Below are positions 1 through 25,394 of a DNA stretch of 32,000 nt, piece after piece; the first letter of the stretch is position 1, and each line of letters opens with the position of its first letter. The position numbers and the translations under genes were made by a program. Source of the stretch: Planctomycetales bacterium (GTDB lineage Bacteria > 4484-113 > JAFGCY01); NCBI GenBank assembly GCA_022646745.1, contig CP060262.1:3810001-3842000 (forward strand). The letters run 5' to 3'. The notes under the pieces were generated by a model. The model had not been told where the DNA came from. It saw nothing but the letters and a program-made list of their open reading frames with translations, and did no database searches.

Positions 1-3000
1 GTGACGCTTTTGGCAATGGCCAGGAGATTGACCGCTCCCTGGATGGCAACTCCGAACCGGAGATGACCATCAACAACATCCAGATCCGATACCACAACGG
101 CTCCAGCTGGACTACGCAGGACACGATTACTCCGACATACACAAGCGATCTGATCACACGGCTTGATGTCAAGTACTGGAATGAATCCGGTTCGACCACC
201 AGTACTGCGTACAAGATCTATTACTCATACACCAGCATTGATTCAGCAGATCGTCTGACCAAAGTGGAGCCCAAGGATTCGTCAGACACGGCCCTCAACA
301 TGGAGGTAGAATACGACTACAACGCTTCCGACGGGCTGGAAATGACGAAGATCTACGACACAGAGGGTAGCAAGGCGGGAACGCCCTACTACTGGAGTGT
401 CAGCTATACCAGTGACAAGGTGACCAGCCTGGTTTTCCCGATTGAAAGTGGTACAACCGGCACCGTAGGCTTCGACTACTCACCGACTGCCCCTACCGGA
501 TGGCCCGGCAGCGGCGCGCTGACCGAAGTGACGGACGCCCGCAGCAACTCCTGGTGGTATGACCATGACACCAGTGGCCGTGTGACCTATCAGGCGGATC
601 CGCTGTGGACCCAGACCACGCATGAGAGCCACATCATCACAACCTGGGATTCTGACAACCAGGTAACCCAGGTGGACACGCCCAAGCCCAACAACCTGTC
701 GGGCAGGCTGACCACCAAGAACTTCTACAACTCTGACAAGAACCTGGAAGTGACCCAGGACCAGTATGGCTTCCTGAGCTTCTACAAGTACGGCACCCGG
801 GCCAGCTACGACACTTCTGGTACCGACGCTACGGTTGATGACATCATTGGCATCTTCACCCCGATGCCCAACCAGAAGGCATATGCGGATGGAGACTACA
901 CCTCCAGCGAAACTACCGCACCGTCCAGCCCGGACATCACGGATGTGAGCTGGGATAACACCAATGGCTACTGGTACTACACGGATGCGGCGGGTTCACC
1001 AAACACCATCAAGCTGGTTCGCACTGTCAATGATCCGACGTATGCTACAGGAACCGGCCAGCTGACCGAGATGTTGTCCTGTTCGCCGGAAAATTTTGGC
1101 GATGGTGGCAATCCGCCGACATATTCGCTGACAACATCATCTGCATGTAACAAACAGGAATATGCTTCTACGACTGGCGATCTGTCCAAGAGCTACACTC
1201 CCCGCCAGTTCCAGAATTCCAGCCTGAAGTGGACTGCCTTCACATATGACCAGCGCTACGGCGTGATGACTGAACAGGAGAATGCAGACAGCCTGGCCGC
1301 GACAGCGAATAAGAAAACCAAGTTCTATTACAACGACACCCGCACCAAGAGGACCAAAGTTGAGCTGCCTGAGGACAACACCAACCAGTGGACAGTCACA
1401 GTTTACGATGACCGCGAGTTCGTTGTCGGGACGCAGAAGCCGGACATTCAGAGCTGGAGCGTCAATCCCCAGGTAAATGTACTTGAGTATGACTACAACG
1501 GCAACCTGGAGAAGGTCTACCAGGCGGACCCGGCTGCGGTCGGCACCAGGTGGAATGGTAATACCGCAAATGGCTACTACCACCTGAACACCTTCTACTA
1601 TGACCGTATCAACCGGCAGATCCAGAGTGACACGCGCGTGGACTGGGACCAGGATGCCACGGTTGAGACCCTCTCCACGTACATGACCTATGACGAGAAT
1701 GGGAATCTGGAGCGCGTCAAGGGACCACAGTACGATGTCGGTGGAACCGGTTATTACAGTTACACGTTCAAGACATATGACAAATTGAACCGCATTGAGT
1801 TGTCATACCTGACCGAAGCTAGCACTAATTCCAACCTTACAACTCCTAGTGGTTCGTACTCCGAGAATACATATAGCGTTAGTGGAAATGTAGTTACCGT
1901 CACCGATCCACGTGGCAATGCAACCACTCTACTCAGTGATTTCCGAGGAGCCGGAGTACAGAACAGCAAGGCATACACACCCGGAGGTGGTGGATCTGCC
2001 ACTCAGACCACAAAGCAGCACTTTGGAGCTAACGGCCAACTGTATTGGATCCAGAATGGAGAGGGATACAAGATGTATCCCCAGTATGACGATAATGGCC
2101 GTCAGGTATACAACCGACGTGGATCTGACACTGGCGCCACCGATGAAATTGAGTACGATGCCAACAGTAACCGGCTGTACTTCTACACTTATCAGGATGT
2201 AGTAGACAGCAAGGTCTACCGCGAAAAGAGTGAATACGACCTGATGGACCGGATGGTTAACTCTGGTCGAGAGCAGTACACGGGAGGCAGCTGGCAGAAC
2301 TGGAACGAAAACACAGCCGATACCACCTTCAATTACAACGGCTGGCTGATAAAGACATACGAAAAAGTCAATTCAGGAAAGTATACCGAGCGCACATACG
2401 ATAACTGGGGGCAGAACCTGAAGGTCAAAGCACCAGAAGTTGCCCATCCGTCCGGTGTGGGCACCATCGTCTATGAAACCGAGAACACATATGACGTGCT
2501 GGGCCGCCGAGTCAGCATGGATGACCATATGGATAACACCACCAGTTACACCTTTGATGTACTAGGCAGGGTGATCGAGGTCACAGATGCGGAAAGTTAT
2601 GATGTAGACACAAAGTATGACGAGCGTGGACTCAAGGCCCAGGTGACCATGCCCGCTGGTGCGGTGTATAAGTACACCTATGACGCAATGCAGAGAATGA
2701 CTCTGCAGAGAGTGACTGCCAACAGCATTGATATTGATACTGATTACACCTACGACGCCAATGGCAATACCACCCAGGTTGACTACCCCGATGGTGGAGT
2801 TACCAAGAATACATATGACGCGCTGAACCGCACCACCAAGAGCGAGGTTCTGTTGTCCGGCATGGATTACCTGGCTACTGAAATGGAGTATGACGACAAT
2901 AACCGCGTCACTACTCGCACGGCTCCCGGTGGATATGACACAGTATATACATATGACAACCTGGGGAACGTTACCACCATCACAGACCCCAACAGCGATG

Positions 3001-5990
3001 ATACCGACTTTACATATGATGCAGACAACCGCATCCTGACCAAGTCGCCGCCAAATGGCCTTGTCGAAACCACCACCTACGACTGGAAGACGCGAGGCGT
3101 GGCAACTGTCACCAACAAGATGTCCGCTTCTTCCGGCGATGACATCACCACAACATATACAAGAGATGACAATGGGCAGGTTACCGGCACGGAAGATGGT
3201 CGAGGCAATGACTGGACCAAGACCTACGATGCCATGGGACGCAACCTGACACTGGTGACACCCAATCCCGGAAGTGGCTCATATACCTGGACCAAGACCT
3301 ACGACGGCAACAACAACATCATCAAGACCAACGATTTCAAGAGCACGGACCATTACTACGCATTTGACGGCCTGAACCGGATGACTGGCCATGGCGCCGA
3401 CAGCAATGCCGATGATGAAACATATACATATGCATGCTGCCGTGAAATGACTGCCTACACGGACAGCAATGGTACTGCCACTCTGGTGTATGACGATCTT
3501 AGCCGCTTGACGAGCAACACTGACAGCCAGGGCAACCAGGTGCAGTATTCCTACGATGCCATGAACCGGACTACAAGGGTCACAGGTCCGCAGGGCACAA
3601 ACTACCGCACAGACTACAGCTTCAACAAGAATGGTTCAACATCTCAAGTGGATGTGTATATCGCCGGTACTGCTGAGAGTTCCACCTATGCATATGACAC
3701 CACATCAGGCAAGGAGACATACAGACGGTTCCCGACCGTATCCAGTGCTTACATCCAGACCGCCAGCAGCTATGACAGCGCTGGTCGCTTGCAGTACGAA
3801 ACCGTCAGCAAGGAAACTGGTTCCACAACCAATATGTACCGGACTTCGTACAGCTACAGCTTTCTGACTTATGGCCGTCAGGTGGTACGTACTGAGCAGG
3901 AATACACCCTGGGGACCTGGCTTGACAAGAACCGCCTGACCTACAAGTGGAACACGCTTGGTTGGCAGACCTATGAGGAACGCGAAGATTATCACCTCGG
4001 TTCCTGGTCGAATCGGTATGACATTTCGCAGGAGTATGACAAGGATGGTAACCGAACCAGGTTCCACAGGAATGTTGCAAGCGGCTACACTTCCAGCTAC
4101 GGCAAGGCGATGGATCTGGGATACACTTTTGATGTACGCAACAACATGTCTGCCATTTCAGATGCGGATGATGCTAACTACGCAGCAGCCGTAACCACTG
4201 ATGCTAACATGAACATCACGGAGATTGACGAATCCTATGACAACGGCAATGGTGTCAATCACCTATATACACAGTTTGCGGTCGATGATTTAAATCGGGT
4301 AACTGAAAACAAGACAAAGAAGTATATTTCGTTGTCCGCCAAATGGCAGTGGACTAGGCGTCAGCATGGTTACAATGCTACCGGTAGCATTGTGAACACG
4401 AATATGAGTCAGTACTGGGATGGCGATACACCTCCTGCCGGTGACTCACTTCAACATATTTATGATCGGGGCCTGATGCTGCAGAACTACGACGGTAGCA
4501 GCACTTATGGCGACCAGTGGCGTTGGGCAGGAGCTCAGAATGCTCACAAGTCACCGCTGCATTCTCCTAACTCTGACACTGCCTCTCAGACTGGTTACAA
4601 CCTTGCCAATGACAAGACTCCTCAGCGCCGGACCTTCCTGAGCCCAACAACTGAAGGGGACCAGCGCAATCTTTACGGCCAAGGCAAGCCCCAGGCCAAG
4701 GATAGCTCAGGAAGTGGCGCTAACTGGTATGTCGGCACAACAAGTCAGCCGCAGACTGCACAGATGGCCAGCATCGAGAGCCGACTGTTCTTCGAGGGCA
4801 CAGTGACGGCAACCGACATGGACCGTGCCACAGACACTCGCGAGAAGGGCCGCCTCGGCATCACTGGCTCTGCGCAGTCCTATGGTGGAAGCAATGGTCG
4901 CGTCACATCAGAGGCAATCGGGCGGGACATCAACCCCCTGGGACGAGGTAATGGCTCTGCCTTGGTTGGTGGCATGATGAATATGGGTATGCTGGCACCT
5001 AGTCTGCCGGGTGGTCGTGGCGAAGTGAATCAGGGGAACAGTGTCAATAATCCTTGTTTTGGATGTTTAAGCGGAGGAGGTGGAACTGGTAATTCTGGGG
5101 GAACAATTCAAGGTGGTTCTTCGAATGATGATCAAACTACTCCACCACCTGGTGGAGTGTTGCTTGATCCAATTCTTATGTGGAACTTCGCATACAAAAC
5201 TCCTGAAAAGTGTAATATCTGGGTCAAACAGCGTCCTACTGTACCCATATTGCCATTTGGCTCAACGGTGTTTGGGTATAATACATTTGAACTCGGTGGA
5301 TTTGAAGTTATCGATAATAATACTGGCATTAGTTTTGATCCTAATGCAGGTGGAAGTTCCGGCAACTCAGGCGGTGGGTTATCCGGCGGAGGTGCTTCTG
5401 GAAATCCTGGAATGCCATCCGATATTCCCTGCAACCCTGTTGAAATGATAAAGAAAAATGCTTGCTTTGCAGCAGCATGGTATACACACAAATTCAAGGT
5501 CTTGGAACTTCGCGCACAAATCTACTGGTACATGGTCGAGCTCACTATAAAGAGATCTTTATTGCTAGCAGGATTATCTGCGGCACTATTGTCAATGTTT
5601 GGCACAGAGGATTTGTTTGATATTATCAGTGGCGGAATTTCAGATCAAGAAATAGAGGGAAACAATGATCCTTGGCTTTGGGATCTGTGGGAAATAATCC
5701 TAGGAGAATTCGAAGAAGTTGCAGACAAGTACACTGACATATTCTATGCATTGTGCATCATTGCGGCAAAAGTGGCAAGCGTTCAGTGGTTCTGGTGGAT
5801 ATCTCAGTGTGATTTATGGAATCTGTTGACACAGGCATGGAACGGCTGCTGCTTAGTGAGTCCTTGTTGTCAACCAAATGGTCTTTACAGGGACTGCAAT
5901 GCTTGTTATGGCCCCGATCCCTTCAACAGCATGAGGCGTTGGTGTGACAATGTATGGGGACCAATTAGAGACTGGGATTGGTTTGTATAG
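1..5990 (+). CDS. RHS/YD-repeat polymorphic toxin, 5'-partial (continues upstream of window)
   Basis: Many YD-repeat units are visible in the translation (YTYDANGN, YDALNRTT, YTYDNLGNVTTITDPN, FTYDADNRILT, YDAMGRNLT, YDDLSRLT). The frame has no stop between nt 3 and the listed ATG at 63 (DAFGNGQEIDRSLDGNSEPE precedes the Met), so the true N-terminus is outside the window. Confidence 0.9.
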   Translation, partial: DAFGNGQEIDRSLDGNSEPEMTINNIQIRYHNGSSWTTQDTITPTYTSDLITRLDVKYWNESGSTTSTAYKIYYSYTSIDSADRLTKVEPKDSSDTALNMEVEYDYNASDGLEMTKIYDTEGSKAGTPYYWSVSYTSDKVTSLVFPIESGTTGTVGFDYSPTAPTGWPGSGALTEVTDARSNSWWYDHDTSGRVTYQADPLWTQTTHESHIITTWDSDNQVTQVDTPKPNNLSGRLTTKNFYNSDKNLEVTQDQYGFLSFYKYGTRASYDTSGTDATVDDIIGIFTPMPNQKAYADGDYTSSETTAPSSPDITDVSWDNTNGYWYYTDAAGSPNTIKLVRTVNDPTYATGTGQLTEMLSCSPENFGDGGNPPTYSLTTSSACNKQEYASTTGDLSKSYTPRQFQNSSLKWTAFTYDQRYGVMTEQENADSLAATANKKTKFYYNDTRTKRTKVELPEDNTNQWTVTVYDDREFVVGTQKPDIQSWSVNPQVNVLEYDYNGNLEKVYQADPAAVGTRWNGNTANGYYHLNTFYYDRINRQIQSDTRVDWDQDATVETLSTYMTYDENGNLERVKGPQYDVGGTGYYSYTFKTYDKLNRIELSYLTEASTNSNLTTPSGSYSENTYSVSGNVVTVTDPRGNATTLLSDFRGAGVQNSKAYTPGGGGSATQTTKQHFGANGQLYWIQNGEGYKMYPQYDDNGRQVYNRRGSDTGATDEIEYDANSNRLYFYTYQDVVDSKVYREKSEYDLMDRMVNSGREQYTGGSWQNWNENTADTTFNYNGWLIKTYEKVNSGKYTERTYDNWGQNLKVKAPEVAHPSGVGTIVYETENTYDVLGRRVSMDDHMDNTTSYTFDVLGRVIEVTDAESYDVDTKYDERGLKAQVTMPAGAVYKYTYDAMQRMTLQRVTANSIDIDTDYTYDANGNTTQVDYPDGGVTKNTYDALNRTTKSEVLLSGMDYLATEMEYDDNNRVTTRTAPGGYDTVYTYDNLGNVTTITDPNSDDTDFTYDADNRILTKSPPNGLVETTTYDWKTRGVATVTNKMSASSGDDITTTYTRDDNGQVTGTEDGRGNDWTKTYDAMGRNLTLVTPNPGSGSYTWTKTYDGNNNIIKTNDFKSTDHYYAFDGLNRMTGHGADSNADDETYTYACCREMTAYTDSNGTATLVYDDLSRLTSNTDSQGNQVQYSYDAMNRTTRVTGPQGTNYRTDYSFNKNGSTSQVDVYIAGTAESSTYAYDTTSGKETYRRFPTVSSAYIQTASSYDSAGRLQYETVSKETGSTTNMYRTSYSYSFLTYGRQVVRTEQEYTLGTWLDKNRLTYKWNTLGWQTYEEREDYHLGSWSNRYDISQEYDKDGNRTRFHRNVASGYTSSYGKAMDLGYTFDVRNNMSAISDADDANYAAAVTTDANMNITEIDESYDNGNGVNHLYTQFAVDDLNRVTENKTKKYISLSAKWQWTRRQHGYNATGSIVNTNMSQYWDGDTPPAGDSLQHIYDRGLMLQNYDGSSTYGDQWRWAGAQNAHKSPLHSPNSDTASQTGYNLANDKTPQRRTFLSPTTEGDQRNLYGQGKPQAKDSSGSGANWYVGTTSQPQTAQMASIESRLFFEGTVTATDMDRATDTREKGRLGITGSAQSYGGSNGRVTSEAIGRDINPLGRGNGSALVGGMMNMGMLAPSLPGGRGEVNQGNSVNNPCFGCLSGGGGTGNSGGTIQGGSSNDDQTTPPPGGVLLDPILMWNFAYKTPEKCNIWVKQRPTVPILPFGSTVFGYNTFELGGFEVIDNNTGISFDPNAGGSSGNSGGGLSGGGASGNPGMPSDIPCNPVEMIKKNACFAAAWYTHKFKVLELRAQIYWYMVELTIKRSLLLAGLSAALLSMFGTEDLFDIISGGISDQEIEGNNDPWLWDLWEIILGEFEEVADKYTDIFYALCIIAAKVASVQWFWWISQCDLWNLLTQAWNGCCLVSPCCQPNGLYRDCNACYGPDPFNSMRRWCDNVWGPIRDWDWFV
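4951..5990 (+). other. C-terminal variable (putative toxin) cassette of the RHS protein
   Basis: It starts just after a degenerate RHS core-end-like motif (GRDINPLGRG, nt ~4921-4950). Composition turns A+T-rich from ~5040. Layout: two Gly/Ser/Asn linkers (GGGGTGNSGG; GGSSGNSGGGLSGGGASGNPG) flank a ~75-aa module, then hydrophobic helices (SLLLAGLSAALLSMFG; IFYALCIIAAKVASVQWFWWI) and a Cys/Trp-rich tail (CCLVSPCCQPNGLYRDCNACYG...RRWCDNVWGPIRDWDWFV). The boundary is approximate. Confidence 0.5.
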
Positions 5991-6240
5991 CAGCCTCAAC
6001 TTGGTCATTTCAACTGATTATTCTGGAGTTCTCGTGAACGAACATTCTAACAGTGATAAATATGAGTATTCTGATATTCTGGAACAGAACAGGTCATTAC
6101 TGGCCGAGAACAAAAGATTAAGAACAAGAATACTGATAATCTTAGTTATCTCCGTCATTGTAATTTTCATTGCCCCTATTGCAAGCAAAGTAATTCAGAA
6201 TATCGCTCTAGGCGAGATAAATCAATCGAATGATAAGTAG
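5944..6240 (+). CDS. small tail-anchored membrane protein, candidate cognate immunity protein
   Basis: ORF immediately downstream of, and overlapping, the RHS stop, in the same A+T-rich block. It has a short coiled segment (LEQNRSLLAENKRLRTR) followed by one clear TM helix (ILIILVISVIVIFIAPIA). GTG at 5944 and ATG at 5950 are both possible starts; no clear SD. The immunity role is inferred from position only. Confidence 0.4.
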   Translation: MTMYGDQLETGIGLYSSLNLVISTDYSGVLVNEHSNSDKYEYSDILEQNRSLLAENKRLRTRILIILVISVIVIFIAPIASKVIQNIALGEINQSNDK

Positions 6241-6340
6241 AATTGGTTTACTTGTGATTGTTTAAGACAACAACTCAAATGTCCGAAATTGGAATTCTGT
6301 ACTGGTTTCTTTCAAGGTTGGATATTAGCTCCACTCACGA

Positions 6341-7981
6341 TTAGTCTTTGTCAATAAAACCCAAGCCCTCTACTTCGGGAGGCAACTTACTAGCGTCCTT
6401 TCTCCCTTCCTTGACCCCTTCAAGATAATGATCGATGGAATCCATCAGGTTCTTCTTGCGTTTTTCCTGTTGATCCTTCAGTTCCACATGGGGACGATAT
6501 TCTTCGTTATAAGGGAAGTTCCTCTTGGGTGCTATCAGGTTGTCGTGTGTCTTGATTAGCTCAGGATGCTCCATTGCTCCCTTAACCATCAGATACGCCT
6601 TGCGTTGCTCCAGTCGAGCGAGACTGTGGAAAGCCACTTCCCACATCTCCGGTAGTGAGAACTTGTTCACCGGTTCCTGGAGCAAGCCTGCTTCACGCTG
6701 TTCCAGTTGCTTCACGATGTTGGAACTTTCCTTGGCTAGCCGTTCGGCATCCTGCCTTGCGACCCGGAAGTAAATCTGTGTTTGGCAGTTGCCAAGAATG
6801 AGAGCCAGCAGTTTGTCATCCAACTGCTTGAGAGACTGGTGCGCCATTGTCAGGCACAGGCCGAACTTTCTTGCTTCTGTAAGTACTGTTGCAAAACTTT
6901 CAGTGGCAATGTTCTGGAACTCGTCTGCATACAGGGCAAAGGGACGGCGAGAATCCATGCCACGGGTCAGGAAGCTGGATTCAATGTCAGCCATCAGCAT
7001 GGCTCCAAACAAGTCAGCACTTAGCCCTAATCTACCCTTGGCCAGATTGACCAGCAGGATTCCACCACTGTCCATAATCTCGCGGACGTTGAACCCACTT
7101 TCCACCTGCCCTAGCCTTGCCCCGATGCGAGGATCAGCCAGGAAGGCCGACACCTTGTTCAGGCTACTCTCAATGAACATCGTTCGTTCTTTGCTATTCC
7201 AGACGTTGTAACGGCCAAAGAAGAAGTCTTTGGTTGTATCAGTGCTGGTCTCGGCCAGCAGCATGTCTCGGAAGTCGGCATCTACAAGAACTTGCTCGAA
7301 TTGGTGCAGGGTCAGGTTGTGCTCGATGAGGAGCGCTAAGGTGTGTCGGAGAATATCTTCCATCCTTGCACCCCAGCTGTCTTCCCATACACGCTTGAAT
7401 GCCAACAATAGCCGAGCTACCTGTTCTGCAATCGGCACACCTTCCCGGCGCTGTAGCGGATTGTATGGAAGCATGTGCTCCATGTCCGCCAGGTCGAGGA
7501 GCACTGCCTGCTCCCGGCGCTCATTGAGGTGCGGGATACTGTCCGTGATGAGATCCCCGTGCGGGTCAATCACACAAAAGCCCATCCCGCTGGCAATGTC
7601 CTGAACGATAAAGTTTTTCAGTAGGGATGATTTGCCAGCACCGGAAGCACCGACCACGTACATGTGAGTGGAGCGAAAGTCGCCTGGGAGCATAAGGGTA
7701 TTGGCAAATCCAGAACTCTTGGTATCGCCAATTGCCAACGAATACTCGCCGTATAGTTCATCGGGAGTGTGGTTTTGTAGAATCCACAAAGCCTCTGCAT
7801 TGGCAGCATTGGCGAGATCCCGCACCTTGAGGAAGCCAGTGGTGTAATCCTCCATGTGATACATGAAGCCGGTCAGGGAGGCACGGATACCCCAGATGAT
7901 GCCAATGGCAACTGCAGTATATAGAAGATATACCAGCGTGCTAAGTACAAAATTCCAAAACAATCCGAACTGAGGAAACAT
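6341..7981 (-). CDS. type IV coupling protein-like P-loop ATPase (TraD/TraG/VirD4 / TrwB-type), N-terminal membrane anchor
   Basis: N-terminal hydrophobic segment FGLFWNFVLSTLVYLLYTAVAIGIIWGI. Walker A VVGASGAGKSS followed by CVIDPHGD. Walker B-like LYADEFQN and TMAHQSLKQL, a layout typical of T4CP/TraM-recognition-domain ATPases. ATG at 7981 is preceded by GGAGG; the listed ORF start at 8002 is a TTG. Confidence 0.75.
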   Translation of the reverse strand: MFPQFGLFWNFVLSTLVYLLYTAVAIGIIWGIRASLTGFMYHMEDYTTGFLKVRDLANAANAEALWILQNHTPDELYGEYSLAIGDTKSSGFANTLMLPGDFRSTHMYVVGASGAGKSSLLKNFIVQDIASGMGFCVIDPHGDLITDSIPHLNERREQAVLLDLADMEHMLPYNPLQRREGVPIAEQVARLLLAFKRVWEDSWGARMEDILRHTLALLIEHNLTLHQFEQVLVDADFRDMLLAETSTDTTKDFFFGRYNVWNSKERTMFIESSLNKVSAFLADPRIGARLGQVESGFNVREIMDSGGILLVNLAKGRLGLSADLFGAMLMADIESSFLTRGMDSRRPFALYADEFQNIATESFATVLTEARKFGLCLTMAHQSLKQLDDKLLALILGNCQTQIYFRVARQDAERLAKESSNIVKQLEQREAGLLQEPVNKFSLPEMWEVAFHSLARLEQRKAYLMVKGAMEHPELIKTHDNLIAPKRNFPYNEEYRPHVELKDQQEKRKKNLMDSIDHYLEGVKEGRKDASKLPPEVEGLGFIDKD

Positions 7982-8048
7982 AGAGGTTCTTCCTCCAATC
8001 AAACTGCAAGATAAGATTCCCGTGCGGAAATCTGTCCGATAACTCCGT

Positions 8049-8276
8049 CTACTTGGAGTCTACTGGCGAAACTCCCCTCAATAGTTCCGAGGGGCGGCAC
8101 TCAAGAGCGCCGGCTAACTTACAAATCGTCAACAGCGTGACATTGTATTTGCCAAGCTCAACGTCCGTGACATACGTGCGATTCAGACCCGACCGGAGAG
8201 CAAGTTCCTCCTGAGAGATACCGAGCTTCTGTCTGCGCCTTCTCACGTTCTGACCAAGGGTCTTGCTCTGCTGCAT
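8049..8276 (-). CDS. XRE-family helix-turn-helix transcriptional regulator
   Basis: Classic HTH_3 sequence LGQNVRRRRQKLGISQEELALRSGLNRTYVTDVELGKYNVTLLTICKLAGAL. I prefer the ATG at 8276 (MQQSKTLGQN...) over the TTG at 8354 listed in the ORF track. Confidence 0.8.
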   Translation of the reverse strand: MQQSKTLGQNVRRRRQKLGISQEELALRSGLNRTYVTDVELGKYNVTLLTICKLAGALECRPSELLRGVSPVDSK

Positions 8277-8324
8277 TCTGGGAAATTGAGCGTATATACT
8301 TGCAATCCACCAGTCCACCGGGTA

Positions 8325-8354
8325 TAACTGACAAACGTCGGATTTAACTGACAA
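8325..8354. promoter_or_regulatory. direct repeat TAACTGACAA x2 (20-bp phasing) in divergent intergenic region; candidate XRE operator
   Basis: TAACTGACAA occurs at 8325-8334 and again at 8345-8354, between the divergent XRE gene and the 8374 gene. Operator function is inferred. Confidence 0.3.
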
Positions 8355-8373
8355 TCAATGTGGGAGGCAGTGG

Positions 8374-8886
8374 ATGAAGTGCCACACTCATAACTTCGAA
8401 GATGCGGTGGCTACTTGCTCAAGCGGATGTGGACGGGGGCTATGCCAGGAATGCGCGACTATGCGCAACCCACCCACCTGCCGCATCTGCACCGAGGCGA
8501 TGCTGGATCATCATCTGTATGACCAGCTGTACGAGATTGCAGAAATCAAGAGAGCGATGGTCATCAATGCGATCATTCTCGCATCGGCAATACTGGGCAC
8601 AATATTCTCTTATTACATCAATGCCAGCGGCAATCAGGACAACGGCGGCCTACTGATCCTCAGCCTGCTGACCTACATTCCCTGCATCTACTGGGGCTGG
8701 AATACGTTCAAGGGATTGATTGACAAGGCACAGGACGCATCCGGTTGCCTGTTCATATTCAATATGCAGGGAGGATGCGTGATGTTCTTCTTTGGGGCAA
8801 TCATCTGCGCTGGATTTGCTCCCATTGTGATTCCATTCCAGCTCTTCAAGCAGTGGCAAGAGCTAAGGGAGTTGCAAGGCTATTAG
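8374..8886 (+). CDS. membrane protein with N-terminal Cys-rich zinc-ribbon/B-box-like motif, function unknown
   Basis: GGGAGG lies 7 nt upstream of the ATG. N-terminus CHTH...CSSGCGRGLCQECA...CRIC, followed by several hydrophobic helices (VINAIILASAILGTIFSYYI; LLILSLLTYIPCIYWGW; VMFFFGAIICAGFAPIVIPF). Confidence 0.6.
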   Translation: MKCHTHNFEDAVATCSSGCGRGLCQECATMRNPPTCRICTEAMLDHHLYDQLYEIAEIKRAMVINAIILASAILGTIFSYYINASGNQDNGGLLILSLLTYIPCIYWGWNTFKGLIDKAQDASGCLFIFNMQGGCVMFFFGAIICAGFAPIVIPFQLFKQWQELRELQGY

Positions 8887-8892
8887 AAAAAT

Positions 8893-8915
8893 GGCGGTCA
8901 CTGGGAATGACCGCC
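8893..8915 (+). terminator. hairpin after the 8374-8886 gene (possible terminator)
   Basis: GGCGGTCA-ctgggaa-TGACCGCC, an 8-bp stem; there is no clear U-tract after it. Confidence 0.3.
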
Positions 8916-9030
8916 GTAAAAGGACATACCTGCAAATATCTCGGAGGGGAGCAGGCAGGCTGAGCATACGCCTCAGCCATGGCCGGTGCAAGAGTTTTTT
9001 GCGTCGGTACACCTGTACTAGGAGAATAGT

Positions 9031-9732
9031 ATGTCAATCACGGATCTGGTTTCGGCGTTTGTGAACCTGCACAGTGCCATCAAGATCGTACTCGGAGCAG
9101 TCCCTTTCCTGATCGGTCTGTATGCCTGGGTGCGCCTGCGAATCAAGTTCCAGCGCTGCTACATCCGGCTGGTAAGGGCACTCCCCCGCTACGTCCAGTA
9201 CCTGAAGGACCGGAAAACCGCCCTGGGTGTGATGGATCACCCGCAGCAACTTCGCTTCGAGGAGGCCGAGAAACGCATCGCCATCGAGCTGAAGCTCAAC
9301 CTCCAACCTTCGATGACAAGCTGGTGGAGTTACCTGAACCCCGGTCAGCGAGACTACCTGTCCTTGGCAATCCGGCAGCTGGAGAGCAGCACATTCTGCA
9401 TTTTCGCGGATGACCTGCTGCAGCGCCTGATCCTCGTACTGGACACCATGACCGACTATGAGAATCTGCGTCGTCAGTCCCGCTGGACGTTGGATGCAAT
9501 GGAGCATTCCCGGCAGCGAGAAAAGTTGCGCAAGCAACTGGAAGAGGACTTTTCCAAGCTGGACCGCCACATTCGCCTGATACAGAAGTATCTGGCCGGT
9601 CAGCTGGACGTGGATATCTGTCCTGCCATCGAGGCAGGGATGTTTAGGAGCTTGCTGGACGAAAAGTACAGCGCATATGAAGCGCTGAGCAGAGAGGATA
9701 TAGAGTTGGCAACGATGGAAGTTGCCAACTAG
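9031..9732 (+). CDS. hypothetical protein, N-terminal TM helix plus helical/coiled-coil body
   Basis: AGGAG lies 8 nt upstream of the ATG. TM segment IKIVLGAVPFLIGLYAWVRL; the rest is charged and helical. The fully overlapping antisense ORF (9034-9777) looks like a shadow ORF. Confidence 0.6.
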   Translation: MSITDLVSAFVNLHSAIKIVLGAVPFLIGLYAWVRLRIKFQRCYIRLVRALPRYVQYLKDRKTALGVMDHPQQLRFEEAEKRIAIELKLNLQPSMTSWWSYLNPGQRDYLSLAIRQLESSTFCIFADDLLQRLILVLDTMTDYENLRRQSRWTLDAMEHSRQREKLRKQLEEDFSKLDRHIRLIQKYLAGQLDVDICPAIEAGMFRSLLDEKYSAYEALSREDIELATMEVAN

Positions 9733-9904
9733 GGATTTAGGTTTAGTTGGTATGTTTAGAAGTAGAATCCCGCGCACAGTCGAACTGAATCCGCCGACCC
9801 TTACGACCGCTCCCCGAGCGGCTGGAGGGGCGGAGTCGGGTTCATTTTGGATGGGAGCAACAGCCTGTTTACACAGTCTGGAAGCGGGTTTACGTGAAGC
9901 ACTG

Positions 9905-9978
9905 CCTATTCCTAGCCTAAGAATACCCTTAGGAATAGGTAAACCAGGACGGAATCAGGTCCTCAGAGGCCGTCCTGG
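9905..9978. other. two adjacent strong hairpins in a ~470-bp non-coding stretch next to the left inverted repeat
   Basis: Hairpin A: CCTATTCCTA (9905-9914) pairs with TAGGAATAGG (9930-9939), 15-nt loop. Hairpin B: CCAGGACGG (9944-9952) pairs with CCGTCCTGG (9970-9978), 17-nt loop. Confidence 0.5.
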
Positions 9979-10198
9979 GACCACTACGAACCGGAGAATT
10001 CTAGGTGAGTGTACTGAGACTAGCAGGTGCATGCATGATGTCCACGTAGGCAAGAGGTTCAAGTTTCCTCTCGTCCGCCATGGTCTCGTGGAAGGCACAG
10101 ATACGAGCCATCAGAAGCAGTTGAATGACAAGGGAGTTGACTTTCTACATGTCATTCATGCTATCCTCGAAATAGGTTCGAAGCTCGTGGAGCAAGGC

Positions 10199-10286
10199 CC
10201 ACCAATCGGAACTTTGGCCGCGCTCCGCGAGGAGCGCGTAAGGCAGATTCCAGTCCCAGAGCAGAATTCGGGAATTCAATTTCAGG
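10199..10286. repeat. left copy of perfect 88-bp inverted repeat (IR-L)
   Basis: By hand alignment, ccaccaatcggaactttggccgcgctccgcgaggagcgcgtaaggcagattccagtcccagagcagaattcgggaattcaatttcagg is the exact reverse complement of 12618-12705. Confidence 0.95.
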
Positions 10287-10330
10287 ATTGGGGGATGCCT
10301 GAGCGTTGTCAGGTATTAATTTCTGAATGT

Positions 10331-11182
10331 ATGCAGTTACGAATCTTTGACGTAGAGCACGGCGATAGCATCTTGATTCTGAGTAACAAGAATGAGGCTG
10401 TTTTGGTGGATTGCGGTTGGAACCATACAACCGGATGGAGAGTATCTGATGGATTGGCAAAGCAGGGCTTTGGAATACGCAGGAAACTTCATCACGTCAT
10501 CATCACTCATCCGGATCAGGATCATGTAGCCGACCTGCCTAATGTGCTTGAGAAGCTCAAGCCAGTCCACGTTTGGCAACACCCTCAGTTGTATCTCAAG
10601 AACATCTCTGAGCTGAAGGCGACACTGAGTCAGGCGCAAAGTGCATACCTGGCCAGTCGCAAGTCCACAGCAGAGCTACAGCCTAGAGAAGCCTCCAGAC
10701 AGTTCAGGACTATGGAACTCCACCAGTTCTACCTGCCGGTTGGTTCGGTCAGGGATGTTAACGACCTGTCACTGGTGACCTTCCTCAAGGAAGATGGCTT
10801 TACCGTCTGTCTGCCGGGGGATCTGAACGCCCGTGGCTGGCGTCTGCACCTACAGAACAAGGCATTCCAGTATTGGCTTCGAGAGACAAACCTGTTCTTT
10901 GCCTCACATCATGGCCGGATGTCCGGCTATCTCGACAAGGTGTTTGAATACCTCTCACCTAAACTGATTGCCATTTCCGATAAGGAGCAGACTAAGGGGA
11001 GGACAGTCACTCAGCGCGCGCCATACACTGACCACTCCAGAGGCGTGAAGATGAAGGATGGCAGCTTTAGGCGCGTCCTGACAACTCGCGGGGATGGCAG
11101 AATTAAGATAGTCGTCAAAGATGGCAACTGGGAGATCAGCACATCACGAATGGAATCCACAAACAAGGGAGGACAGAGATGA
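10331..11182 (+). CDS. MBL-fold metallo-hydrolase, ComEC/Rec2-type
   Basis: MQLRIFDVEHGDSILI...VLVDCG, then metal motif HVIITHPDQDHVADL, then LFFASHHGRMSGY (the HHGS-like motif typical of the ComEC MBL domain). The domain begins at the ATG at 10331. The listed ORF start at 9722 runs through IR-L and the hairpins and is unlikely to be coding. Confidence 0.75.
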   Translation: MQLRIFDVEHGDSILILSNKNEAVLVDCGWNHTTGWRVSDGLAKQGFGIRRKLHHVIITHPDQDHVADLPNVLEKLKPVHVWQHPQLYLKNISELKATLSQAQSAYLASRKSTAELQPREASRQFRTMELHQFYLPVGSVRDVNDLSLVTFLKEDGFTVCLPGDLNARGWRLHLQNKAFQYWLRETNLFFASHHGRMSGYLDKVFEYLSPKLIAISDKEQTKGRTVTQRAPYTDHSRGVKMKDGSFRRVLTTRGDGRIKIVVKDGNWEISTSRMESTNKGGQR

Positions 11183-12801
11183 GAACATATGATCCAAAAG
11201 ACTATGTAACAGACGCTAGTCAGCTGACTCAACAGGAGCTGAGCTATTTCATATACGTCCGTAAGTCCACCGAGGGAGATGAACGACAGGCACAAAGCAT
11301 TCCTGACCAGCTCAAGATTGCCAAGCGGAAGGCTGCTGAGATGGGCCTGAAAGTCGTTGACACCTTCACTGAGAGCAAGAGTGCCAGAAAGCCAGGCAGA
11401 CCAATCTTTATGGAGATGCTGGAGCGCATCCGCAAGGGTGAGGCCAATGGCATTCTGGCATGGCATCCGGACAGGCTGGCTAGAAATGCAGCTGACGGTG
11501 GACAGATTATTGAGCTTCTGGATAGCGGACAGTTGCGAACACTGGAGTTTGCCAACTTCTGGTTTGAGAACACCAGTCAGGGCAAGATGAATCTTGGTCT
11601 GGCTTTCGTACAGTCCAAGTACTACACCGACAACCTCAGTGAAAATGTGTTTCGCGGATTGCAGTCCAAAGCGGATCGGGGCATTTACCCCAATGGTTCC
11701 AAGCGTGGATATCTGACTCATCCCAAGACCAAGTCCCCTGTCCCCGACCCAGAGACATTTCGCCATGTACGGACAGCATATGAGTTGTATTCCACCGGAA
11801 GATACAGCCTGCGTAGTCTGAGCGAGAAGCTGCACAAATTGGGTTTTAGGAACCTCTCCGGTGGCTTACTTGCTAAACGACAAATAGTTGACCTGCTGAC
11901 TGACCCCTTTTACTACGGGGCGTTTGTGTGGAACCGGGAGCTGTATGAAGGCATCCATGATCCAGCTGTATCCAAGGAGCTGTGGGACAAGGTGCAACTG
12001 GTATACATAGACAAGAGCAAACCACAGTCCAAATGGAAGCATCAGTTTCCATTTTGTGGCCTGATGCATTGTGCTGAATGTGGCAGCTCCATTACAGCTG
12101 AACAGCAGACCAAACGGCAGAAGAATGGCAATGTCCATGAGTATGTCTACTACCGTTGCACGAAGAAGAATCACCGTCAGGAGAAGTGTAAGCAACCATT
12201 TGTACGAGATGTGAAGCTGGTGGAGCAGCTTCATTCCATGCTAGGAAGAATATCCCTCCCTGATGAAATGGCAATCTCGATGCTGGAACAGCTGGACAAG
12301 TGGGAATCAGAAGTTGCCAATACCAGTTCCACTGAATTGGATCTTGAGTTGGAAAAGATCACAGCGAAGCTGTGCAGACTTAATGACTTGTTTGTGGATG
12401 GGGAATTAGATCGGGCTGACTATGCAGCCCGCAAGCGCAAGCTGATTGAGAAAAAGATCGCTCTATCAGAGCGCGTGAGTGCCATGCAGTCCAATGGCCA
12501 CTTGGCATGGCTCGAACCTCTCAGGGAGTTCCTGAACACAGTCTGGGAGCGAAATCTCCACGCTGTGGGTGCTGATCTGAATGAACTCCGCAATCATGTT
12601 GCGGAGGTTGGCTCGAACCTGAAATTGAATTCCCGAATTCTGCTCTGGGACTGGAATCTGCCTTACGCGCTCCTCGCGGAGCGCGGCCAAAGTTCCGATT
12701 GGTGGAGGGAACGTGGGCTATGGGGAGAGCATGACACTAGGCTATCAGGATTGGGATTCCAGTTGTTTCCTTGGATTTCATCAGCCAGGAATCACAGTTG
12801 A
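11179..12801 (+). CDS. large serine recombinase (resolvase/invertase N-domain + recombinase domain + zinc ribbon + coiled coil)
   Basis: N-terminal catalytic region YIYVRKSTEGDERQAQSIPDQ and GILAWHPDRLARN. Zinc ribbon CGLMHCAECGSS...YVYYRCTKK. Coiled coil LDLELEKITAKLCRLNDLFVDGELDRADYAARKRKLIEKK. The ATG overlaps the MBL stop (ATGA at 11179-11182). The last 60 codons span IR-R. Confidence 0.9.
   Translation: MRTYDPKDYVTDASQLTQQELSYFIYVRKSTEGDERQAQSIPDQLKIAKRKAAEMGLKVVDTFTESKSARKPGRPIFMEMLERIRKGEANGILAWHPDRLARNAADGGQIIELLDSGQLRTLEFANFWFENTSQGKMNLGLAFVQSKYYTDNLSENVFRGLQSKADRGIYPNGSKRGYLTHPKTKSPVPDPETFRHVRTAYELYSTGRYSLRSLSEKLHKLGFRNLSGGLLAKRQIVDLLTDPFYYGAFVWNRELYEGIHDPAVSKELWDKVQLVYIDKSKPQSKWKHQFPFCGLMHCAECGSSITAEQQTKRQKNGNVHEYVYYRCTKKNHRQEKCKQPFVRDVKLVEQLHSMLGRISLPDEMAISMLEQLDKWESEVANTSSTELDLELEKITAKLCRLNDLFVDGELDRADYAARKRKLIEKKIALSERVSAMQSNGHLAWLEPLREFLNTVWERNLHAVGADLNELRNHVAEVGSNLKLNSRILLWDWNLPYALLAERGQSSDWWRERGLWGEHDTRLSGLGFQLFPWISSARNHS
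12618..12705. repeat. right copy of perfect 88-bp inverted repeat (IR-R), inside the recombinase 3' end
   Basis: Exact reverse complement of 10199-10286. It ends on a recombinase codon boundary (TGG 12703-12705). Confidence 0.95.
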
Positions 12802-12906: not shown

Positions 12907-13626
12907 CTATCCGGCAGGAGCAGCACCCTGTTCAGAAAGTCGCAGCATTTGCGGAAACAGAAGATTGTTCTCCAAATGCACGTGAAGATGGGTGTCTCGC
13001 TCGAGATTCTCCAACCTTGAGATAAGAGCCTGCTGCTTGCGACACATCCCTTCTCCTGCAACATAACCCCTGTGGATCGAACGCATCTCCGACAGCATCT
13101 GCCCGATAGATTCGTGTTCCTCAACGTAACCATCCAGCAGGACATTGACTGCGGATCTGATTTCATTCGTGGACCCTTCCATGATTGGACCGCACAGGGG
13201 GAAGAGCACCTGCTCCTCGTTTCGCATGTGATTTTCCATTTCCCCACGCAGTGCCCTGAACAACTCCAGTGACTTCATGAGTTGGGGCTGCTGGGCCGCA
13301 TGATGGCTGCAGACATGGACATGCAGTTCATCCAGGCGGGGCAATTCCTCCCACAGGAAAGCATGGTGTGTCCCGAGGATATGACCTGCCAGCCTCACCA
13401 GACCGGCATTCTGCAGGTCTATTCCATCGTCTGATGATTCTTCATCACACGCTGACAGAGCAGTCAGGATTTCGTCAGGGTCGATGCCACCCCTCTCGCA
13501 GACCTCACGCAGAGGAACATTGCCACCACAGCAGTAGTCAATGCCGTAGCTCTCAAAGACCCTGGTTCGGGCCATGTTCTCAGTTGCCATTTCCGCTACT
13601 GTCCGCCCGGAATCAAGTGTTTTCAT
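12907..13626 (-). CDS. ric: iron-sulfur cluster repair di-iron protein (RIC; YtfE/ScdA/DnrN family)
   Basis: ScdA_N-type N-terminus VFESYGIDYCCGGNVPLREVCE, followed by hemerythrin-like His/Glu repeats (HILGTHHAFLWEELP; EMENHMRNEEQVLFP; YVEEHESIGQML; THLHVHLENNLLFP). ATG at 13626 with GGAAGGA upstream; the longer listed ORF start (13749) overlaps nosY. Confidence 0.85.
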   Translation of the reverse strand: MKTLDSGRTVAEMATENMARTRVFESYGIDYCCGGNVPLREVCERGGIDPDEILTALSACDEESSDDGIDLQNAGLVRLAGHILGTHHAFLWEELPRLDELHVHVCSHHAAQQPQLMKSLELFRALRGEMENHMRNEEQVLFPLCGPIMEGSTNEIRSAVNVLLDGYVEEHESIGQMLSEMRSIHRGYVAGEGMCRKQQALISRLENLERDTHLHVHLENNLLFPQMLRLSEQGAAPAG

Positions 13627-13648
13627 GTCAGTCCTTCCTACGAGTGAT

Positions 13649-14488
13649 TTAAATATCCTGGCGGCGCAGCAGCAGGGCCGCCAGCCAGCCAGGCAGCACA
13701 ATCCAGCCTGCAAGTGCAGCGCCAAGAAGCAAGAGTGCCTCACTGACACCGCCCAGAGACCTCACCAGCAGCACGCCAGCAGCACCGAACATCTCCTTGC
13801 CTACAGTCGCCAGCAATGTGGATATCCGTGTGGCATCCACCGGGTTCAGGAACAGGCTGATGTAACTCACGCGGTTGGCAACTCCCTCCGGCAGGAGGAA
13901 CCCAAGCCCGATTATGCCAAGGTCATACAGCAGCACCATCACAAACCATGCGATCAGGACCACTCCGTAGCTTCGGTGCGAGCGCTGCATGGCGATTGTC
14001 AGCAAAGCCGCGATGGAGCAGAAGGAGCATGCGATCGCCAGGCTGTACCCCACCAGCACCAGGTAGCTGCCCAGTCCCACGGTCCCAGTCTCCCTGGCGA
14101 TCATGACACCGGGCAGCCCGAAACCGACGAGTGTTGCCAGGCTGAGTGCGGAGCTTACACCGAACAGTTTTCCGGCCACAATCTCCGCGCGGGTGATCGG
14201 TTCTGTGAACAGCTGGTCCGTACAACCACCATCGGCGGTGAAACTCTGGACAGTCATCAGCATCGCGGCTAGTGGAACAATGTACAGGACCAGGTTCAGC
14301 AGGCTGGCAGTCGTACGCTCAAAGCCCTGGAAGCCCGTAAACTCAATGATGCTCAGGCCGAAATAACTGACCGCAGTTGTCAGGACGGTGAAGATCGCGG
14401 CATAGACGAAGATCCAGCGGTTGCGCAGTGCAATGCGCAATTCCTGGCGTGCGATTATTCCGCTGATGCGCAGGGAAATCGTGCTCAT
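13649..14488 (-). CDS. nosY: NosY, ABC-2 type permease of the Cu-processing NosDFY system
   Basis: Polytopic membrane protein directly coupled to nosL (ATGA overlap at 14485-14488), in nosDF(L)Y context. N-terminus MSTISLRISGIIARQELRIALRNRWIFVYAAIF is typical of NosY/ABC-2 permeases. Confidence 0.8.
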   Translation of the reverse strand: MSTISLRISGIIARQELRIALRNRWIFVYAAIFTVLTTAVSYFGLSIIEFTGFQGFERTTASLLNLVLYIVPLAAMLMTVQSFTADGGCTDQLFTEPITRAEIVAGKLFGVSSALSLATLVGFGLPGVMIARETGTVGLGSYLVLVGYSLAIACSFCSIAALLTIAMQRSHRSYGVVLIAWFVMVLLYDLGIIGLGFLLPEGVANRVSYISLFLNPVDATRISTLLATVGKEMFGAAGVLLVRSLGGVSEALLLLGAALAGWIVLPGWLAALLLRRQDI

Positions 14489-14931
14489 GGCTGCCACTCC
14501 AGGACCAGCTGGTCCCACTGCATGACGGTTCCAGGCCATTCCTTGCCCGCCTGCTCAGCTCCTGCCGGGCTCTCGAATGCTCCCAGCCCGTAGCTCATCG
14601 GTGAGGGCAAGTCCTTCGCATGCAGGAAATATGCCTGGTCGGCCCTGAGCCAGGCCTGGCTGTCAAAATCCACCACGAAGGCAACTGCTCCCTCCGGAAT
14701 GCCTGGATCACGGGCCATTTCAACAAGGCAGCCGATGTCATCGAAGTAGAATGCGGTCCTGTCTGTCTTGACGATCTCTGCTGCAAACCTGCGCTGTGAG
14801 ACGGCCATGCGGCAGACCTCACAACTGTCCTCATCCAGCACTATCTCAATCGGTTCCGGTGGACCCTTGCTGCATGATGCAAGAAGCAGGCAGAGCACGA
14901 GCAGGCTACTGGTGGCCCTATTCTTCTTCAT
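14485..14931 (-). CDS. nosL: NosL copper chaperone lipoprotein
   Basis: Lipoprotein signal MKKNRATSSLLVLCLLLASC. NosL-like motifs CEVCRM, FDDIGC and SPMSYGLGAF. Confidence 0.85.
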   Translation of the reverse strand: MKKNRATSSLLVLCLLLASCSKGPPEPIEIVLDEDSCEVCRMAVSQRRFAAEIVKTDRTAFYFDDIGCLVEMARDPGIPEGAVAFVVDFDSQAWLRADQAYFLHAKDLPSPMSYGLGAFESPAGAEQAGKEWPGTVMQWDQLVLEWQP

Positions 14932-15850
14932 TGTCTGCCTCCTCAGCCCCTTTCAGGTACTGCACGTAGACATCCTCCAGCGTGGGGCGCTCGGTGTCGA
15001 AGTCCAACACTGGACCAATACTGCGAAAGCGATCGAGAATCTCCATGCGTTCGGTGCCGCAGCCGGTCACGAGCACGGACTGGCAGTTAAGCGAGGCATC
15101 CAGCGCACCGGCTGCCAGGGCGGCTTCTACATGAGCCGGCTGCGGGTTGCCGACGTTGATCCGCAGTCGGGCCGTGCGGCTGAGACGACTGCGGAGCCTG
15201 GCGACCGGCTCATCTGCGACCGGGGCACCGTCAACCAGCACAATCACACGGCTGGCCAGTGCTTCAACATCAGCGAGGACATGGGTTGACAGGAGGATCG
15301 CCCGTCCATCGTCACGCCACTTTGCCGCCGTCACGCGGAAGTCAAGTGCTCCCTGTGGATCCAGATTGGCTGTCGGTTCATCAAACAGCATCAGGTCCGG
15401 ATCACCGAGACTGCTGAGCGCCAGTGCCAGGCGCTGCCGCATGCCTCCCGAGAGCTGTCCAGAAGTGCGTTCGAAGGCCGATTCCGCCAGTCCACATGCA
15501 AGCAGGGCCTTATCCGCGGAATCGCGTCCCAGTCCCCGCAGGCTGGCATGGAAAACAGCAATCTCTCGCACGGTCAGCTGGGCGGGGAATTGCGCCTGCT
15601 GGGGCAGATAACTGAATTGCCTACGTGCATCCCTGTACTGGCGCTGCAGGTCAAAGCCGTTGACACTGATGATGCCGCTGTCAGCGCGAAGCAGCCCGGC
15701 AATGCAGCGGATCGTGGTTGTCTTACCACCTCCGTTGGGGCCGAGCAGCGCAACCACCTCTCCGGGAGCCACTGCAAGGCTGACTCCGCGGACGGCCTTG
15801 ACGTCACCGTAATTCTTGTAAAGCCCGTCAACTCGCAATACGTCTGTCAT
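14918..15850 (-). CDS. nosF: NosF, ABC transporter ATP-binding protein
   Basis: Walker A GPNGGGKTTT, signature LSGGMRQRLALA, Walker B LMLFDEPTANLD. The ATG at 15850 overlaps the nosD stop (ATGA). The upstream 46 codons of the listed ORF overlap nosD and are rejected. Confidence 0.9.
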   Translation of the reverse strand: MTDVLRVDGLYKNYGDVKAVRGVSLAVAPGEVVALLGPNGGGKTTTIRCIAGLLRADSGIISVNGFDLQRQYRDARRQFSYLPQQAQFPAQLTVREIAVFHASLRGLGRDSADKALLACGLAESAFERTSGQLSGGMRQRLALALSSLGDPDLMLFDEPTANLDPQGALDFRVTAAKWRDDGRAILLSTHVLADVEALASRVIVLVDGAPVADEPVARLRSRLSRTARLRINVGNPQPAHVEAALAAGALDASLNCQSVLVTGCGTERMEILDRFRSIGPVLDFDTERPTLEDVYVQYLKGAEEADNEEE

Positions 15851-17880: not shown

Positions 17881-17908
17881 CTGCTCCCTGGTGCTGATAG
17901 TCCTCTGA

Positions 17909-19792: not shown

Positions 19793-19802
19793 TGCTACCT
19801 CC

Positions 19803-21053: not shown

Positions 21054-21067
21054 GGTTGCGCCTCCTC

Positions 21068-22432: not shown

Positions 22433-22434
22433 TT

Positions 22435-25338: not shown

Positions 25339-25352
25339 CTCAGCTCCATACT

Positions 25353-25374
25353 GGTATTCCGGAATCAGAATACC
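25353..25374. promoter_or_regulatory. palindrome GGTATTC-N8-GAATACC, candidate Rrf2 operator
   Basis: Perfect 7-bp arms, beginning 15 nt upstream of the rrf2 start codon and overlapping the putative -10. Confidence 0.4.
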
Positions 25375-25394
25375 TGATATCTGTGATATGTCAA
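25367..25394 (-). promoter_or_regulatory. putative sigma70-type promoter of the rrf2-...-nos-ric operon
   Basis: Minus strand reads TTGACA (25394-25389), a 16-nt spacer, then TATTCT (25372-25367), ~30 nt upstream of the rrf2 ATG. Sequence match only. Confidence 0.35.

Follow-up and report, generated by a model that had tools for sequence, protein, structure and literature searches.

What does an RHS protein carry at its end when the sequence beyond the conserved shell matches no known toxin family, and where in a target cell would such a cargo act? Rhs tips have already yielded new toxic activities, and the RHS toxins of planctomycetes were catalogued in 2012 (PMC3482391). The question is raised here by a 32,000-nt stretch of contig CP060262.1 from a Planctomycetales bacterium (assembly GCA_022646745.1, positions 3,810,001 to 3,842,000; hereafter the window), in which an open reading frame (ORF) on the + strand, ending at position 5990, encodes an RHS protein whose last 307 amino acids (aa; 5067-5987) form a variable tip. 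An earlier note, made from the letters alone, had read this end as an A+T-rich, swapped cassette with no recognisable toxin motif, perhaps a new and membrane-targeting toxin family. We argue that the tip, together with a small ORF overlapping its end, is an exchanged unit on an unusual RHS scaffold, and weigh how far its composition, its relatives and its partner ORF reveal its mode of action.

The limits of the exchanged unit are set by a syntenic locus (L005) in a closely related genome, the metagenome-assembled genome (MAG) labelled 'bacterium AC1.30'. Aligned by blastn, window positions 4358-5066 match L005 10054-10762 at 78.7% DNA identity, stopping exactly at 5066, and positions 6338-7381 match at 88.8% DNA identity, starting at 6338, whereas the 1,271 bp at 5067-6337 have no counterpart there. 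Between the same flanks L005 holds an unrelated 1,725-bp segment, with an HExxH tip and an N-terminally anchored ORF of 161-179 aa. Because L005 is homologous only on both sides, with breakpoints at 5066/5067 and 6337/6338, the exchanged unit is 5067-6337, comprising the tip and an ORF of 98 aa. The features that define the junction are as follows.

3-5066, + strand: RHS/YD-repeat shell with conserved pre-tip region (Pfam, NCBIfam and PDB matches)
4358-5066, + strand: conserved pre-tip region, the left homology arm, common to all members of the scaffold family
4920-4949, + strand: GRDINPLGRG, an instance of the family motif GRD-x-NPLGRG and not the canonical DPxG (columns G199-G208, invariant in the pre-tip alignment A3)
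5031-5066, + strand: QGNSVNNPCFGC, the junction motif, where conservation ahead of the tip stops and the matches of the first search end
5067-6337, + strand: swapped cassette of variable tip, overlapping small ORF and a spacer of about 100 bp (blastn against L005; G+C content)
5944-6240, + strand: 98-aa ORF overlapping the last 47 nt of the RHS gene, candidate immunity protein (gene calls, transmembrane helix)
6341-8002, - strand: TrwB/TraD-like P-loop ATPase, convergent, the right homology arm, outside the cassette (Pfam TrwB_AAD_bind, TraG-D_C)

Base composition shifts at the same place. The shell has 52.7% G+C (63% at third codon positions, GC3), the tip 44% (GC3 38%) and positions 5991-6340 only 36%, and no stretch of the window is poorer in G+C than the cassette as a whole (41.8% vs 55%); of 2,819 segments of the same size taken from the rest of the 32 kb none is as low, the minimum being 47.4%. 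The drop is real and far beyond chance. The A+T-rich swapped cassette proposed in the earlier note is thereby borne out, by breakpoints and composition together. Its placing of the core end at GRDINPLGRG is right about the motif but not about the recombination junction, which lies at 5066/5067, the conserved scaffold running 39 aa beyond GRDINPLGRG. The TraD-like gene and a serine recombinase were also considered as signs of a mobile element inserted at the RHS 3' end, but this origin of the cassette was rejected: in L005, too, the TraD-like gene forms the right flank, which is thus conserved. Taken together, a swapped polymorphic C-terminal tip cassette, horizontally exchanged on an atypical RHS protein, is very probably what the locus contains.

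The same junction recurs throughout a scaffold family. A first homology search with the 356-aa C-terminus found six proteins, aligned over aa 1-49 only and unrelated beyond, and retrieval with the pre-tip alignment A3, built from eight proteins, gave 8 loci in GTDB genomes, hosted by MAGs labelled 'bacterium AC1.30', 'bacterium SJ870' and 'uncultured Planctomycetales bacterium', plus 38 JGI metagenome loci. Within A3 the motifs TD-x-RE and GRD-x-NPLGRG are invariant and the junction reads GNS(V/I)NN, a signature nearly invariant across the 45 non-identical tips extracted from the family; the conserved block thus takes the form GRD-x-NPLGRG...GNSVNNPCFGC, followed by the variable part from 5067 onwards. 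Behind this one junction the 45 tips fall into 27 unrelated clusters, many of the loci being short orphan cassettes. All 45 are Cys-rich (4.2-14.6%, median 7.7%) and about half contain HExxH, while Pfam offers no credible match to any of them, the marginal ones being confined to single members (ADIP, E 0.0015; Aspzincin_M35, E 0.0025). The ORFs that follow the tips typically start with an N-terminal signal or lipobox-like anchor, or have several transmembrane (TM) segments: a signal, anchor or TM segment was seen in 28 of 35 by the Kyte-Doolittle (KD) scale and in 21 of 33 by a stricter one, counts that carry no genome-wide background.

The protein that bears the tip is recognisably RHS, yet of an atypical kind. 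Its frame is open to base 1 of the window, with no in-frame stop upstream of 63, and the encoded chain of at least 1,995 aa has its N-terminus cut off by the window edge. Pfam RHS_repeat (PF05593) matches at 8.6e-32 over eight stretches, TIGR01643 at 5.7e-17, and aa ~820-1220 are matched by the PDB Rhs proteins 7q97, 8qja and 7pq5 and by Tse5 (8cp6) at 1e-12 to 1e-16. The locus L021 (61-6431) provides a near full-length relative, 50% identical over 1,326 aa of shell; its N-terminal part contains DUF6531, a frameshift interrupts it at ~4680, and it is itself open to the contig end. The RHS-associated core TIGR03696 has no match at E<=1 in the window's protein. Rhs proteins have an aspartyl-protease site defined by DPxGx18DPxG (PMC10684867), and a regular-expression search of the whole RHS protein found no paired DPxGx12-30DPxG, only a single DPxG at aa 635. 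The pre-tip region 4358-5066 has no Pfam, NCBIfam or PDB match, nor does its profile match any solved Rhs plug in the PDB. Judged by these motifs, the protein belongs to an atypical RHS family without the canonical DPxGx18DPxG protease motif.

The tip itself is exceedingly rare. Searched exhaustively with phmmer, 1.84 billion representative proteins yielded one relative, P0007 (E 5.8e-9, 28% identity), an orphan cassette on the same scaffold, and two sequence types of the tip are known among ~15 billion predicted proteins. At least four metagenome contigs carry the window type with 100% identical DNA, each time with the same 98-aa ORF. P0007 lies in L052 (1-7381), where three orphan RHS C-terminal cassettes with unrelated tips stand in a row (P0007-type, an unknown Cys-rich tip and an HExxH tip), the first two being followed by small multi-TM ORFs of 149 and 95 aa. 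Back-translated pattern scans of GTDB genomes, JGI metagenomes and IMG/VR gave no match to the tip, and neither did tblastn against plasmids and phages; the search suggested in the earlier note, for the tip on other delivery scaffolds, thus came back empty in all of these collections. A word-indexed protein search with profiles A1 and A2 also returned no match, with P0007 itself among the misses, so that its index evidently lacks these proteins or was swamped by Gly-rich words. That the tip is a new domain family, as the earlier note had suspected, is firmly supported by this single relative. Aligned with P0007, the tip resolves into the following parts.

5067-5156, + strand: linker 1, Gly/Ser/Asn/Pro-rich, tip aa 1-30 (low-complexity runs)
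5157-5342, + strand: module 1, 62 aa, containing PxxPxxPFG and a single conserved Cys (alignment with P0007)
5343-5411, + strand: linker 2, Gly/Ser-rich (sequence)
5412-5987, + strand: module 2, 192 aa, with 11 Cys, 14 Trp and 1 His, putative toxic domain (composition; P0007)
5556-5603, + strand: hydrophobic helix 1, SLLLAGLSAALLSMFG (KD 1.40, Hessa sum +4.9)
5739-5801, + strand: hydrophobic/aromatic helix 2, IFYALCIIAAKVASVQWFWWI (KD 1.56, Hessa sum +3.9)
5847-5987, + strand: Cys/Trp-rich tail, CC-x4-CC-x8-C-x2-C-x12-C (7/7 Cys kept in P0007)

Gly- or Pro-rich stretches akin to linker 1 follow the junction in many sister tips. In module 1, C20, P28, P31, P34, F35 and G36 are invariant between the window tip and P0007. 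Module 2, in which Trp makes up 7% of residues, is predicted to be mostly alpha-helical, its secondary structure coming from low-confidence models only. Across the whole tip all 12 Cys are invariant in P0007, which also shares both modules, a WLW motif, several aromatics and a set of polar residues (D, K, Y, R, S, N, Q); in the tail Y, D, DP and N are retained as well. Cys accounts for 3.9% of the tip against 0.36% of the shell, and the single His in its 307 aa is not conserved. The features quoted in the earlier note (motif, linkers, helices and tail) all lie in the + strand frame of the ORF ending at 5990, and some needed adjustment in detail. There is indeed a module between the linkers, of 62 aa and not ~75; the tail is Cys/Trp-rich, but the 47 aa quoted for it hold seven Cys, eight being reached with the preceding SQC; the two hydrophobic helices exist, although they are only moderately hydrophobic and appear to fall below TM grade.

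Nothing in the tip points to a familiar catalytic chemistry. The patterns HExxH, HAE/PCxxC, HNH-like and DPxG are all absent from it, the two module-2 sequences have no invariant Glu in common, and neither the tip nor P0007 was matched at E<=0.01 when scanned with Pfam, NCBIfam and PADLOC. Even at E<=1 Pfam and NCBIfam give no match to the last 356 aa, the PDB gives no credible one (best E 0.16), and PDB searches with the sequence and the profile of the tip matched no chain. On this point the earlier note, which had seen none of the common toxin-tip motifs, read the letters correctly.

The partner ORF at 5944-6240 belongs to the exchanged unit as well. It was called by gene callers on nine metagenome contigs, sits in DNA of 36% G+C and encodes one strong TM helix at aa 63-81 (KD 3.13, Hessa -3.0). 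P0007 is likewise followed by an overlapping membrane ORF, the multi-TM one of 149 aa (overlap 56 nt). The 98-aa product is the candidate immunity protein of the tip.

How might such a tip work? We propose that the RHS shell would carry it, either in its interior or at its end, and discharge it into the envelope of a competitor. The 11 Cys of module 2 would most likely form disulfides, and the domain would therefore fold and act outside the cytoplasm. There it may damage the cytoplasmic membrane from the periplasmic side, non-catalytically, through interfacial insertion of its hydrophobic and aromatic helices, while the small membrane protein from the overlapping ORF would protect the producer. 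Toxicity, the extracytoplasmic site and the disulfides are what we infer, as are the perturbation of membranes and the protection given by the 98-aa ORF. Action in the target's envelope is, on balance, the probable outcome, because the family's tips are Cys-rich and the ORFs downstream of them mostly encode exported or membrane proteins. With 12 of 12 Cys conserved, the disulfide-knotted domain suggested in the earlier note appears plausible. The helix 1 counterpart in P0007, AALIALLMTAAGAW, is hydrophobic too, and the window tip is among the more hydrophobic of the family, all HExxH tips being less so. A non-enzymatic action on membranes would fit, if weakly, the Trp richness, the lack of catalytic residues and the membrane ORFs that follow both members. 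Among the sister tips, those of L018, L020, L021 and L016 combine clearly TM-like helices with CC clusters and small membrane ORFs downstream, and the L021 tip, which begins with C-x14-CF and has hydrophobic helices, is overlapped at its stop by 46 nt of a 100-aa multi-TM ORF. Remote homology of the window tip to the L020 and L021 tips, suggested by a shared C-x8-14-CF start, helices, CC tail and TM ORF, was considered and set aside, the likeness being architectural only.

Several observations weigh against this proposal, or at least against its last step. Both tip helices appear to lie below TM grade (KD 19-mer maxima <1.6; Hessa +3.9 and +4.9, where the TM helix of the neighbouring 98-aa ORF provides a reference of -3.0), those of P0007 are weaker still on the whole (Hessa sums +4.0 and +6.4), and the P0007 counterpart of helix 2, VVFEICKLFAEIASLYWWYIM, bears E/K/E; the helices could simply be the core of a soluble bundle, and metal binding, not disulfide formation, could be the role of the clustered Cys. 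AlphaFold2 reached a predicted local distance difference test (pLDDT) score of 38 both with the single sequence and with the two-sequence alignment, and Foldseek on the resulting model was uninformative (best E 9). No homology was found between the tip and Tse5-CT, colicins or any PDB chain, and hmmsearch and hhalign gave no link to the L020 and L021 tips (probability 0.3%). As to delivery, the search for an autoproteolysis motif that would release the tip found none, and the N-terminal trafficking domain falls outside the window. As to immunity, no homology is detectable between the 98-aa ORF and the 149-aa ORF behind P0007, and none was found among the small membrane ORFs downstream of tips in general; immunity proteins that have diverged often show no detectable homology, and nothing is proved by it. 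Furthermore, exported or membrane ORFs also follow the HExxH tips, presumed to be peptidases, and therefore argue for an envelope site and not for membrane attack specifically. The membrane-targeting or pore-forming function put forward in the earlier note is thus not established: the helices appear to be sub-TM, membrane ORFs occur family-wide whatever the tip type, and no structure could be predicted. Membrane perturbation specifically is accordingly offered as a tentative idea, and the mechanism as a whole, membrane perturbation included, as one that falls somewhat short of even likelihood.

Several of these observations would also be accommodated if the tip were an envelope-acting enzyme of novel fold, directed at peptidoglycan, lipids or lipoproteins and stabilised by disulfides, with the membrane ORF as its anchored inhibitor. 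Cys-rich tips and exported or membrane ORFs are shared with the presumed-peptidase HExxH tips, the helices appear to be below TM hydrophobicity and several polar residues are conserved with P0007; yet there is no conserved His or Glu (with one His in the entire tip) and no match to an enzyme family in Pfam, NCBIfam or PDB, and conservation between two sequences says little either way. We consider this explanation, the main rival, unlikely. The site of action could also be the target's cytoplasm, where most characterised Rhs and contact-dependent inhibition (CDI) tips act; the Cys would then be Zn or Fe-S ligands, since metals can be bound by CxxC and CC clusters. In that case immunity would not lie with the 98-aa ORF, or else its product would stop import at the membrane, CdiI-type 2-TM immunity proteins having been suggested to prevent uptake (Zhang et al., PMC3482391). 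The extreme Cys content of 45 tips and the signal- or lipobox-bearing ORFs point instead to an oxidising compartment, and no nuclease, deaminase, ADP-ribosyltransferase or NADase motif or profile match was found, which leaves a cytoplasmic target improbable.

The remaining doubts concern whether the region is a toxin at all. It might be displayed at the surface, with an adhesive or structural role, or represent a remnant in decay, with a spurious low-GC ORF behind it, given that the canonical Rhs release motif is absent and that the window-type copies, being 100% identical in DNA, carry no within-type selection signal. Set against this is the full grammar of a polymorphic toxin (scaffold, sharp junction, unrelated tips with ORFs of their own, orphan arrays and a syntenic swap), an intact ORF, a Cys framework kept at 28% identity, and HExxH in about half of the sister tips; a non-toxic role is therefore very improbable. 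That the whole of 4921-5990 is instead a conserved C-terminal plug of the RHS shell can be held only for 4921-5066, which is conserved in all relatives as part of the shell; from 5067 onwards the sequence has no similarity to ~45 relatives bar P0007, and for 5067-5990 the idea is refuted, so that as an account of the region its probability is negligible. The preferred reading remains an exchanged, Cys-rich tip acting in the envelope of its target, with damage to the membrane as its more speculative part.

Should it be true, positions 5067-6240 would hold a compact new toxin/immunity pair, and its scaffold would reveal an Rhs lineage whose disulfide-bonded effectors are specialised for action in the envelope and are released by a different mechanism. 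In its broadest form the claim would make the tip the first of a class of its own among membrane toxins, helical, Trp-rich and disulfide-stapled, borne by an undescribed RHS lineage that lacks the aspartyl-protease release motif and conveys a whole repertoire of Cys-rich effectors to the extracytoplasmic space of its targets, with membrane or exported immunity proteins. Such a lineage would be a branch of Rhs warfare aimed at the periplasm or the cell surface, with a junction and release chemistry of its own; in that form we think the claim doubtful.

The remainder of the window places the cassette in a wider genomic setting. Directly after it, positions 6341-11182 hold a defence-island-like gene set. 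The TrwB/TraD-like ATPase gene at its start matches PADLOC mad8 (7e-15) and adjoins an RHS remnant in MAG AC1.30 too; with it stand an XRE helix-turn-helix (HTH) gene (8049-8354), a Cys-rich membrane ORF (8374-8886), a 233-aa ORF and a metallo-beta-lactamase-fold protein that matches the phage-defence candidate PDC-M48B (8e-41). Two independent metagenome assemblies of the locus (L001 and L002) break off at the same point, window position 8395, between the genes for the HTH protein and the Cys-rich membrane protein, which hints at a repeat or at a breakpoint that varies among strains. At 10199-10286 and 12618-12705 stand the arms of a perfect 88-nt inverted repeat, with 2,331 nt between them; the left arm falls within the metallo-beta-lactamase-fold ORF (9722-11182) and the right within the 3' end of a large serine recombinase gene (11179-12801), and the same peptide, NSRILLWDWNLPYALLAERGQSSDWW, is therefore encoded on opposite strands. 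The repeat could mark an invertible segment or be an assembly artefact. Further on, 12907-25449 on the - strand is a nitrous-oxide reductase cluster, with a ScdA/hemerythrin protein, a NosY-like ABC-2 permease, NosL, a NosF-like ABC ATPase, NosD and a NosZ that combines nos_propeller with cupredoxin; after the nos genes come a cytochrome c, a cytochrome b, a probable Rieske protein (by eye), an FAD/4Fe-4S oxidoreductase and an Rrf2 regulator. The host is therefore likely a reducer of N2O. The window ends with ORFs at 26426-27840 that contain IS3-type transposase-like fragments (RYGYRQITSMLRNAGWHVNHKRVERIWRQEGLKV) followed by a Glu-rich coiled segment (by eye), and with a 1,169-aa ORF at 28432-31941 (- strand) that is rich in Asp, Ser, Thr and Tyr and has no Pfam match at E<=0.01.

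Compared with canonical Rhs toxins (RhsA, Rhs1/Tre23, Tse5 and TcC-type cocoons), the window's protein shares a long YD-repeat shell, a sharp junction followed by an exchanged, unrelated tip, a small ORF immediately downstream and a drop in G+C; DUF6531 at the N-terminus is found in its relative L021, and orphan tip/ORF arrays in its relatives. It departs from them in its junction, where TIGR03696 and DPxGx18DPxG give way to GRD-x-NPLGRG-x27-GNSVNN, and its family departs from them in that every tip is Cys-rich, that the partner ORFs are mostly exported or membrane-bound and not cytoplasmic, and that the hosts are MAGs labelled Planctomycetales or 'bacterium'. The SVNN of the junction resembles the demarcating VENN, and the tip with its two modules is reminiscent of CdiA-CT and its entry-plus-toxin layout, at motif level only; Pfam PT-VENN or any CdiA feature has no match on the full protein or its C-terminus. 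Classical polymorphic-toxin immunity proteins are nearly all cytoplasmic, being exported or TM where the toxin acts outside the cytoplasm, and membrane (2-TM) ones exist for a few polymorphic toxins (PMC3482391), CdiA-CT(EC93)/CdiI among them. The functional precedent is Tse5-CT, the pore-forming Rhs tip of a Pseudomonas aeruginosa type VI secretion system (T6SS) effector (PMC10684867), which is likewise Rhs-borne, helical, apparently non-enzymatic and equipped with hydrophobic helices, and which serves as a model for depolarisation from the periplasmic side. The Tse5 chain 8cp6_B, however, matches the window's shell only and not its tip, which is Cys- and Trp-rich, larger, bipartite and less hydrophobic, and no T6SS context is seen for the window locus, unlike Tse5. 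Tox-WTIP, a predicted non-catalytic, helix-based membrane toxin on RHS scaffolds (Zhang et al. 2012, PMC3482391), is similar in conception but small and highly hydrophobic, with RxxR and Wx[ST]IP motifs, neither of which occurs in the window tip. Thus, as a kind of system, the Rhs polymorphic toxin with a swapped tip is already known; what is new is the tip family and the scaffold variant that carries it, with no canonical protease motif, with tips that are all Cys-rich and with exported or membrane partner ORFs.

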